From the NCBI GenBank assembly GCA_012295275.1, contig CM022671.1, positions 10,974,001-11,038,000 of the forward strand: a DNA stretch of 64,000 nt, written 5' to 3'. The position numbers and the translations under genes are program-made. The notes beneath the pieces were generated by a model. That model did no database searches. It worked only from the letters and a program-made list of their open reading frames with translations, and was not told the DNA's origin. Position 1 is the stretch's first letter. Each line of letters starts with the position of its first letter. Below, piece after piece: positions 42,514-51,947 of this stretch. Source of the DNA: Chrysomallon squamiferum. Taxonomy: Eukaryota; Animalia; Mollusca.

Positions 42514-42586
42514 ATGGAGACGTGGCTATGCATATTACTACACCTGTTGTATATCTGTGGGGTAGGATACTGCGTAACAGAAAGAG
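42514..42586 (+). CDS. Neuropeptide precursor, coding exon 1 (signal peptide)
   Basis: Acceptor ttattttacag| at 42503, 10-nt UTR, attATGG start, hydrophobic core [12 protein letters not shown] with a G-Y-C small-residue cleavage pattern, donor AG|gtaaga at 42587. Confidence 0.75.
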
Positions 42587-42639
42587 GTAAGATTCTATAC
42601 TGACACGTTTTAGAAATAATTATTATTAATCTAGCTATG

Positions 42640-42675
<36 letters not shown>

Positions 42676-42677
42676 CT

Positions 42678-42713
<36 letters not shown>

Positions 42714-48677: not shown

Positions 48678-48742
<65 letters not shown>

Positions 48743-50307
48743 CATCATTATTATTATTTTAAATATAATGTCCAGCCGATGAGTTATAATCTTTCTCAAA
48801 ACTGCTCTGTCATCAAGTCAATCAGGAGCCATCGCTCGCCCGTCTGGTGTAATGAATGGACTTCACGGCCGACTAGCCCAGCGAGAACATCGGGTCATAA
48901 TGGAGAAGAGAAAAACGAAATTCAGTTGACTTTGAAACAAATGGCTAAATCACATGAAACTAACGTAGCGAATATCCTTAATGAATCCCCGGAGCAACTA
49001 TCGTTAGAGTTTACCGCATGGGGAAGTTTGCATCTTGTGCTCGATAATTCGTTTTCTGCATCACAACACGTTACCCAGTGGCATGTTTGTGATGCCATGG
49101 TTTAAGTGATGACATCGTTTTCAGTTTGAAGTTATTTCAGTGAAACTGTTTCAGCTTCTGGTGGAAATTAAATAGTTAGGATTCAGTGGCTGCTGTGTGT
49201 TTTTACGATTATATTTCTTCGAATGAATATAAAGGGTTTAGTTAGCGAAAAGTTTTGTTTGATTTTTCGTACCTTTTAGGATTTTGAAATATAAAGATTA
49301 TAGCCAGAGGACAGGATTTAAATCTAATAATAAATTCTATTTATATATCGTATACACCTTAAGCACACAGGTTGCTGGATTTTTTAAATAGTGTTTTTAA
49401 TAATTTTATTCATGGAATAAATTGTGTCGTATGCTAAAACATCAGAAAACTGCAAGATATCACCGTTACTGAACTTTTAGGATTCTGACAGACTAGGAAA
49501 ATACAAATATTAACAACAACGATACCACCAACAAAAAAAACAATAACAACAACAACAACAGCAACAGCAGCAGCAGCAACAACAACAACAATAATAATTA
49601 ATTAATTCAATACATACCTAATGCATATATAAATATATACGCATAAGTACGTACGTACATACAGACATACTAATTTACAAATATATATACACAAATATAA
49701 ATATATACTTATATATACATACATCTTAAACACATATACACACATTCAAACATACATACGTACACCTACATTAATAAATCACTTAGAAGATATTTGGTTT
49801 AAACTTTTTGTATTAGAAAGGATTTTATAAAATCTGTGGTTTATAAGTTATCGATATGACACGTCCCTCGCAGATTACTTCATTATTCTAATTTTAAAAC
49901 AGCTACTTAGCTCTTCTAGCTAATGTCATAATTTTCTGCGGTTTATCGCAGATTAAGTTTCTGTTTTAGCTACGCCCTCTAATTTCCCTGGAATAAATCG
50001 CATAACAGCGGTGAATTTGTAATTATATTCAAAAGGGGACAAAGCAAGGTCAAACGTAAGTCCCGAAAATGACACACGAAAAAGCGCGTTATTAAATATT
50101 TTCGTTCACGTATAATTACTGATTATAATCATAAACATTATTAATTATGTAAAATAGTTTACAAGAGCATCGTGTGCTAGCGTTTGCTGACAGTTATGTG
50201 TGTGTGTGGACGTGTAAAATGTGTGTGTGTACGTATGCGCATGTGTTAATATGTATGTGGGTATCTATAGGTATGCATGTATTATGTATTAATGCATGTA
50301 TGCATAC

Positions 50308-50345
<38 letters not shown>

Positions 50346-51947
50346 TGTCTCTGTGTATATGTGTGTTTGTGAAAGACGATTAACTGAAATATACTTAAAC
50401 TTGTGTCTGTGTATATGTGCGCGTGTTATATGGAATGGAATGGAAAAAATTAACGTGCTAATTAGCAATAAAAGGCGGGCTTTCTGACAGGTCAGCGGGC
50501 GTGTCTGTCGCAGATCGTTTTTATAGTCAGTTTTTATTTGAAACTGTTAACATTAGCCGCCGATGTTAAATGTTAATTGATTTAGCGTCTAACGACGAGA
50601 CGGATAATGTTGTTATTGCTGTATTTTAGCAGATTACACTCGGTATTTCAAAAAAATGGATTACTTGAAGAAGAAAATTAACTTTTAAAAAAATTAAGGG
50701 ATTTGAACAAAAACCTTTGTTATTTTAAAATGAATAGCAGTAAATCCTACGACTTTAAATGAAAAGCCTACCATTATTTCTTTTCATTTCTATTTATTGC
50801 CAGTTTCGAACGTCTATATTGTAAAATGAAAATTGTATTTGCGTTGTAACGTCAGTCACATTTAACATCAAACAGAATGGGAACACTTAAAGTAATGATA
50901 TTGTCTACGTATTTTCCAATCATCTTAGTTTCATCAAACAAAGAAAATTACCTTCTGCACCAGATTGTGTAATGGACCCGAAGACAAACGACGAGTTTGT
51001 TCAAAACCGCGATTGTTCAATACTAATTAGCACAACACAATACTAATTAGCACTGTTGAATTAATATTACAAGATATGTTGTACTTCACTTAATGAGTTT
51101 ATATTTCTACATATCTATCCTTACTGCTAGGTACTTTTTATTTAGTTCTGTTCTTTCTATAACTTTTACTTGTTTTTGTTGACCAATCAGAGATTTGTTA
51201 AGTAAATACAAATATATATATATAAGTTTTATCTTATTCTAAGCGTTATAAAGTTAGAAAATATTTGTATAAATACTATCATTTTAGTTTTGTTATTAAG
51301 GAGATATTAACGCTGCAGGTAGAGGTTTTTTTTTTTTTCTTCTTCTTTATTTAGTTTCTTATTGTGATGAACTAGAAGACTGATAACGATGATGCTGATA
51401 GTTTGCATTATTTATATATTTATTTATTTGCAGCATTAGACTATTTTTTTCTTAAAAGTTCATGAAATTATTTTTCCTTTCTTTTTCTACAGAAATCACT
51501 GACAAATCACGTGACTGGTTTACAGGGAAAAACGAGGGAGAGACAACTCAAGGGTTGCTGCCTGCTCTGTTAGAAAACAATCACGTGGATCTGCCAACGA
51601 ATCAGCAACAAGTTAGCAAACGTCTGCTCGACTCTATTCGATTCAGGGCTGGGATAGGACTGGGCAAGAGACTGTCGCTGCTGCAGGAGTTACAAAAGAA
51701 TATTCAAACAACAGCTGACCTGATTGGGAAGTCAAAAAATAAAATAACCAACGATTTACTCAGCACTAAAGATATGTTTTCTAAAATAACGAGTAAATTC
51801 CCCGAAGAGAGCGGTGACTGGAGGGACATGTTTCCCAGCCGAAAGGTGCCCAAGAGCAAGGTTCGACCCAGCCTGCCTAAGGCGACGACATTGCAGAACC
51901 GCAAACATCTCCAGCCTGTCGTCTACTGGATTGGAATCGGAAGATAA
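42514..51947 (+). CDS. Putative neuropeptide precursor (prepro-hormone), 175 aa; join(42514..42586,51493..51947)
   Basis: The signal-peptide exon [24 protein letters not shown] ends in phase 1 (G|gtaaga) and matches the phase-1 acceptor ttttccttt...ctacag|AA at 51493. The product contains [18 protein letters not shown] and [19 protein letters not shown], i.e. dibasic convertase sites plus Gly amide donors. Confidence 0.8.
44320..44829. repeat. 36-bp minisatellite, about 14 copies, in the prohormone intron
   Basis: Unit gaaatcacagcgctacaagctgaactaactgtttta with 32-bp and 38-bp length variants. Confidence 0.95.
45300..46694. repeat. 42-bp minisatellite, about 33 copies, in the prohormone intron
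   Basis: Unit tctcgtaaagctcgatactcgtata(c/a/g)cagtgtagtttgt(a/t)ca; accounts for the repetitive minus-strand ORFs in the track. Confidence 0.97.
46813..46974. repeat. 36-bp (4 x 9 bp) tandem repeat, about 4.5 copies
   Basis: ttgtagttcgtatagctcctatagccagtatagctc-type units starting at 46813, 46849, 46885, 46921 and 46957. Confidence 0.9.
51493..51947 (+). CDS. Neuropeptide precursor, terminal coding exon with two predicted amidated peptides
   Basis: Polypyrimidine acceptor, 455-nt open frame richer in GC than its flanks, KR...GKR and RK...GR-stop motifs, tandem TAA TAA stops. Confidence 0.85.

Follow-up and report, generated by a model that had tools for sequence, protein, structure and literature searches.

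Molluscs are usually described as having a single, multi-repeat buccalin or allatostatin-A (AstA) gene (PMC8514136, PMC12509031; here and throughout, statements about articles cited by PMC identifier pertain to the accessible parts of those articles), and the molluscan peptides end in L-amide or I-amide (PMC5996578, PMC8514136). Second buccalin genes have been recorded in Pomacea and Conus ventricosus and, by citation, in Haliotis discus hannai (Li et al. 2021, PMC8514136). Nemertean AstA repeats include LDSMRFAAGL-GKR and VDSIRYAGGL-GKR (Thiel et al. 2021, PMC8557429), and the repeats of nemertean AstA2 include GIDHLRFRTLGL-GKR and GMDLFKFRNIGL-GKR; at least three nemertean entries, one labelled AstA2 and two labelled allatostatin A, close with DPYRYMFG[IM]-GK-stop (PMC8557429). 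These terminal peptides lie behind a single Arg, and monobasic sites are mentioned for nemerteans in the same article (PMC8557429). Here we describe a gene in a 64,000-nt stretch of Chrysomallon squamiferum CM022671.1 (the window, on which all coordinates are given) that is probably, judging from its sequence, a compact second AstA/buccalin paralogue of a gastropod, with two amidated peptides instead of tandem repeats. The gene is already present in RefSeq without a name, and both the AstA/buccalin family and second gastropod paralogues are known; it is the two-peptide form that appears to be undescribed.

An initial annotation of the window had joined a hidden 73-nt exon in phase to a terminal exon 8.9 kb away, to give a protein of 175 amino acids, and every coordinate of that model is right. 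As read from the sequence, 42514–42586 and 51493–51947 join in frame into 528 nt encoding 175 amino acids, with the ATG at 42514, a GAG/GTAAGA donor at 42586/42587, a pyrimidine-rich acceptor ending in TTTTTCTACAG/A at 51492/51493 and the stop codon TAA at 51945–51947. The features of the locus are as follows.

42480–42503, plus strand: splice acceptor ahead of the first coding exon, reading TTATTATTTTACAG
42504–42586, plus strand: first coding exon of 83 nt, consisting of 10 nt 5′ of the ATG and 73 coding nt (42514–42586), with a phase-1 donor
42587–51492, plus strand: GT-AG intron of 8,906 nt, with several tandem arrays
51493–51947, plus strand: terminal coding exon, residues 25–175 and the stop codon, with 59–62% identity to two homologue clusters
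51618–51671, plus strand: KR (51618–51623), predicted peptide 1 (51624–51662) and GKR (51663–51671)
51672–51725, plus strand: conserved amphipathic segment, residues 85–102, directly behind GKR
51900–51944, plus strand: RK (51900–51905, not conserved), core of the predicted terminal peptide 2 (51906–51938) and GR (51939–51944)
52280–52289, plus strand: first candidate polyadenylation signals (AATAAA) 3′ of the stop codon

Residues 1–20 are hydrophobic (Kyte–Doolittle windows of 1.6–2.4), are conserved in the snail Gigantopelta aegis and form a predicted signal peptide, the cleavage of which we take, by the −3/−1 rule, to fall after Cys20. Cysteines occur only at positions 6, 15 and 20 of the 175 residues, so that the initial statement that none lies beyond the signal peptide holds. 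The dibasic pairs are KR at 67 and 83 and RK at 141 and 161; the KR and RK pairs named initially are present, and RK141 had been omitted. The calculated MH+ is 1429.864 for peptide 1 and, if RK is the point of cleavage, 1323.757 for peptide 2.

A search with the exon 2 translation gave 24 candidates, 2 of which are homologues: a protein in ENA (62% identity) and isoform X2 of G. aegis LOC121390441 (59%). The G. aegis protein XP_041378202.1, a RefSeq model called ‘uncharacterized protein’, matches both exons. Exon 1 is identical to the N terminus of this protein at 18 of 23 positions, with an E value of 1.9e-10 by tblastn within the window and an alignment score of 120, compared with a maximum of 54 in 2,000 shuffles; the match resumes at residue 25, with exon 2 at 59% identity over 155 amino acids. 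The homologue in ENA aligns from residue 25 onwards only, and its earlier part is an unrelated, low-complexity, polypyrimidine-like translation, probably because it reads through an intron with the same acceptor. These alignments confirm the predicted two-coding-exon gene model, its frame and its coordinates. For more distant orthologues, the protein searches returned only the same two clusters (2 of 24, 2 of 7,998 and 2 of 27 candidates), and none of the 594 pattern matches in a metagenome scan was confirmed.

Conservation was counted as the positions invariant across three sequences: the window protein, the G. aegis protein and the homologue in ENA. The N-terminal spacer is invariant at 9 of 42 positions, KR at 2 of 2, peptide 1 at 12 of 13, GKR at 3 of 3, residues 85–102 at 17 of 18, the distal spacer at 28 of 58, the RK before peptide 2 at 0 of 2, peptide 2 at 10 of 11 and the terminal GR at 2 of 2; because the three sequences are fairly close, part of this conservation may reflect shared ancestry. 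On these sequences, the profile is that of a prohormone. The conserved short peptides are flanked by basic cleavage sites and amide-donor Gly residues that are conserved as well, which supports the prediction of a conserved precursor of the amidated-neuropeptide type, with KR and GKR on either side of peptide 1 and an amidation signal at the terminus.

The KR, GKR and GR sites, which had been expected to persist in orthologues, are invariant in all three sequences. Of the two amides that had been proposed, the 13-mer is still the predicted product, with its KR and GKR kept, and the 11-mer is not supported, as the RK that would release it reads DR-S or DS-S in the homologues; the N terminus of peptide 2 is therefore uncertain. 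Nor is conservation confined to the two peptides, as had been supposed, given that residues 85–102 are nearly invariant. This segment has a helical hydrophobic moment of 0.48, a value attained by 65 of 10,000 shuffles, and it may belong to a third product that is not amidated, or serve as a sorting element.

The family assignment rests on short peptides compared by eye. Both peptides carry a C-terminal G-L/I-amide (GL-GKR in peptide 1; GI-GR(R) in peptide 2), and a hydrophobic residue followed by Asp stands near the start of each: LD in peptide 1 in all three sequences, and LD in peptide 2 in two of three, with LQ in the window. Apart mainly from an insertion of one or two residues, peptide 1 resembles the nemertean AstA and AstA2 repeats, and with AstA2 it shares the form xxDxx[RK][FY]xx[LI]GL-amide (PMC8557429). 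By eye, the layout of the precursor also resembles the C-terminal part of at least three nemertean entries, in which the last internal peptide is followed by a basic site, a segment of comparable hydrophobic spacing, a spacer and a terminal DPxxYxxG[IM]-amide to which peptide 2 is similar. Peptide 2 of the homologues aligns without gaps with the 11-residue peptides of Pomacea XP_025108540.1 (SMDPKHFFVGL; xMDPxHFFVGL-amide; PMC8514136), which it equals in length and in the positions of the D-P and of the aromatic pair. The initial annotation had proposed an undescribed family and possibly an undescribed peptide–receptor system; both peptides match AstA/buccalin-type peptides already published (Thiel et al. 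2021; Li et al. 2021), and a receptor for such peptides is known in Aplysia; an undescribed family is therefore not supported.

Pattern and profile searches also bear on this assignment. The pattern [LMIVF]D.{2,4}[FYW].{0,4}G[LIV]G[KR], which was composed after the peptides had been seen, matches each of the two homologues twice, a number not reached in any of 100,000 shuffles of either; with a post hoc pattern and with shuffles as a weak null, the result speaks for repetition within the protein more than for membership of the family. Among the ESM Atlas matches, most of the top rows to which a Pfam family is assigned are neuropeptide precursors (0.89–0.91) with no agreement among them, which supports the neuropeptide class and not a family, and a second ESM Atlas search gave nothing at or above 0.9.

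Several points weigh against membership of the AstA/buccalin family. The window protein matches the pattern only once, owing to the replacement of Asp by Gln in peptide 2. No AstA family was returned by Pfam at E values up to 10, only unrelated sub-threshold matches, in a scan from which weak short matches are removed by the HMMER filters and which did not include a canonical buccalin as a positive control; there is no AstA cluster among the ESM Atlas matches listed, and the protein searches gave two close clusters and no alignment link to AstA. The strict Y/F-x-F-G-L/I-amide motif is found in neither peptide: the Phe of peptide 1 lies seven residues from the amide, in FRAGI (FxxG[LI]) followed by an extra Gly-Leu, and peptide 2 ends in YWIGI, which fits with Y for F and lacks the second Phe. 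There are two peptides here as against 7–29 in described molluscs (PMC8514136), all AstA/buccalin precursors compared are multi-repeat (PMC8557429, PMC8514136, PMC6425005), and short G-L/I-amide endings can converge. Departure from the strict motif is also seen in peptides filed as AstA, among them nemertean AstA2 (PMC8557429) and the Deroceras unit FAGGIGI-GKR (PMC6425005). Taken together, the departure from the strict motif, the multi-repeat norm and the missing profile link make the gene a variant and not a canonical buccalin, and leave an independent family a small share of the probability.

In that event, the peptides would belong to an undescribed neuropeptide family whose G-L/I-amide ends had converged on AstA and which acts through an unrelated receptor of its own. 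We consider this unlikely. It would account for the lack of any hidden Markov model, Pfam or ESM Atlas link to AstA, for an arrangement of two peptides and a long conserved spacer unlike that of the buccalins compared, for the departure from the strict motif and for the absence of the exact peptides from the main texts searched. However, both peptides in the homologues bear the same succession of hydrophobic-Asp, aromatic residue and G-L/I-amide; peptides nearly identical to these bear the AstA label in nemerteans, Pomacea and nematodes, and the DPxxY peptide is the terminal one both here and in the published nemertean precursors. A signalling system that is new as a whole is likewise unlikely.

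More improbable still is that the gene derives from AstA and only peptide 1, perhaps together with the helix-bearing fragment behind GKR, functions, the terminal peptide being released only in a long extended form or in the course of degeneration. The unconserved RK, the homologue without a basic residue at that place, the change from D to Q in peptide 2 of the window and the near-invariance of residues 85–102 would suit this idea, but peptide 2 is invariant at 10 of 11 positions and its GR throughout, against 28 of 58 in the spacer that precedes it, and nemertean terminal peptides also lie behind a single Arg. We give hardly any credence to the last alternative, in which the exons would be unconnected, or the locus would encode a secreted protein that is not neuronal or be a relic without expression. 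The RefSeq model is itself a prediction and the junction is read here from genomic sequence; yet both exons match a single G. aegis protein, in the expected order and with the junction falling at the same residue, the reading frame is uninterrupted, and it is at the processing sites that conservation is highest.

The motif of PBAN/diapause hormone is a PRL-amide. PBAN/diapause hormone was the top match in the ESM Atlas (0.91) and was rejected, as it shares a family with only 1 of the 10 best family matches and the peptides have no PRL-amide. The LASGL[VI]-amide ending of LASGLV-amide is absent from both peptides, the PXRX family, which requires four cysteines (PMC6425005), was rejected, and the sulfakinin ‘DYWIGGGRF’ shares YWIG by chance (PMC8557429). 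The motifs of mollusc-specific families of oyster and scallop (GNamide, WGAGamide, RTLFamide, SLRFamide, LXRY, IWMPxxGY and others), as given in the accessible text, match neither peptide.

The processing steps proposed for the AstA/buccalin-type precursor follow established prohormone biology, and the receptor and role follow family resemblance. The signal peptide would be removed near Cys20, and convertases would act at KR, at GKR and close to Arg161. A single Arg with Lys at P8 occurs both in the window protein, at Arg161, and in G. aegis, and the protein in ENA has no basic residue there. By the monobasic cleavage rule, peptide 2 is probably cut at the single Arg161 and predicted to be a 12-mer, not an 11-mer. 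Carboxypeptidase would then trim the basic residues and PAM would amidate both peptides, yielding the 13-residue amide of peptide 1 and an amide of 11–12 residues from peptide 2.

These peptides would act on a buccalin/AstA-type G-protein-coupled receptor, of the galanin/kisspeptin-related kind. In Aplysia, apBuc/AstA-R is activated by 19 of 19 buccalins tested, at 23–320 nM (Xu et al. 2025, PMC12509031); its authors suggest that amidation is critical and that an N-terminal MD matters, and a KISSR-like receptor does not respond to Aplysia buccalins (PMC12509031). As Aplysia buccalins lower the contractions of the radula closer (PMC9263205), modulation of feeding or of the gut is the role presumed by default, and by analogy the peptides would most likely reduce feeding or gut muscle output.

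With its own acceptor ten bases 5′ of the ATG, the first coding exon is probably preceded by a further upstream exon. The 10 nt ahead of the ATG (42504–42513) read C-F-I in frame, and the longer G. aegis isoform X1, with an N-terminal extension of 14 residues, has C-F-N and then M; tblastn within the window gave no convincing match to an upstream exon for this extension. Within the 8,906-nt intron, no internal in-frame exon passed a filter for phase-1 exons of 30–400 nt with YAG and a pyrimidine tract and a GTRAG donor. The intron contains minisatellites at 44321–44829 (36 bp × 14), 45300–46694 (42 bp × 34) and 46787–46974 (36 bp × 5), and these arrays account for the long spurious open reading frames listed at 45.2–47.2 kb. 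At the end of the gene, the stop is doubled (TAA TAA, 51945–51950, the second TAA at 51948–51950), and the homologues have an extra Arg there (GRR-stop).

A six-frame scan of the window found G[LIV]G[KR] at five places, only two of which have a known coding context, both in the terminal exon; it thus revealed no tandem AstA-like paralogues in coding context elsewhere in the window. About 6.5 kb downstream, exons of a ubiquitin-specific protease span 58510–62937 on the plus strand (Pfam UCH at 62458–62934, E value of 1.7e-11), and 58510–58875 on the same strand encodes an N-terminal transmembrane-like stretch that resembles USP30. This gene is a useful synteny marker. At 10384–11331, also on the plus strand, a splice-acceptor-like tract precedes an open frame of 315 aa, which has a weak match to the immunoglobulin domain Ig_3 near its end (E value of 0.09, below the cut-off) and probably belongs, as an exon, to a gene for an Ig-domain protein.

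Neither the G. aegis accession nor the exact peptides occur in the main texts searched (text exclusive of figures and most supplements), and no two-peptide AstA/buccalin form was found in those texts. The accession and exact peptides were also not found in the accessible supplements of De Oliveira 2019 (PMC6425005), of PMC8557429 and PMC8514136 and of an abalone ganglion study (PMC6523705). A matching family is absent from the available lists for scallop (PMC5996578), oyster (PMC8398477) and Biomphalaria (PMC5455113), the supplements of which, like Sharker 2020 and the cuttlefish neuropeptidome, could contain an orthologue; the bombesin paper, in its accessible part, mentions Gigantopelta only in a tree legend. 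That a compact paralogue was missed by a survey covering G. aegis (PMC8514136) and is ‘uncharacterized’ in RefSeq suggests that repeat-based searches overlook such genes. If the assignment is correct, the gene supplies two concrete candidate ligands for duplicated buccalin receptors and for the orphan KISSR-like receptor, and could serve to place the spiralian AstA duplication in time.

Nemertean AstA2, the second paralogue in those animals, comprises many tandem repeats, whereas the gene here has two peptides, the first one residue longer than its nemertean counterpart and the second ending in WIGI (PMC8557429). A more far-reaching idea, which we find rather doubtful, is that the gene is a molluscan member of an old AstA2 lineage shared with nemerteans, reduced to the terminal two-peptide module, with the helix in a third product and with its own receptor, either a duplicated buccalin receptor or the orphan kisspeptin-receptor-like receptor that is unresponsive to Aplysia buccalins. 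A Haemonchus NLP-5 peptide has the same last five residues as peptide 1 (AGIGL-amide) and an upstream Phe-Asp, but lacks the RFR core and belongs to a multi-peptide precursor in a distant phylum (PMC8153747); NLP-5 is a possible AstA orthologue (PMC9263205). With canonical buccalin precursors (Aplysia NP_001191649.1; G. aegis XP_041367891.1) the protein shares a signal peptide, KR/GKR processing sites, a hydrophobic-Asp near the N terminus of the peptides and an L/I-amide end, although the Aplysia precursor holds 29 peptides with FxxG[LI]-amide ends (PMC12509031). Pomacea XP_025108540.1 is also multi-repeat, unlike the gene here, and showed no alignment-level similarity to it in the searches. 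Because G. aegis owns a separate multi-repeat buccalin precursor, XP_041367891.1 (PMC8514136), the gene described here is not the canonical one and would be a second paralogue; like the second Pomacea gene, it would be an AstA-type gene alongside a canonical buccalin.

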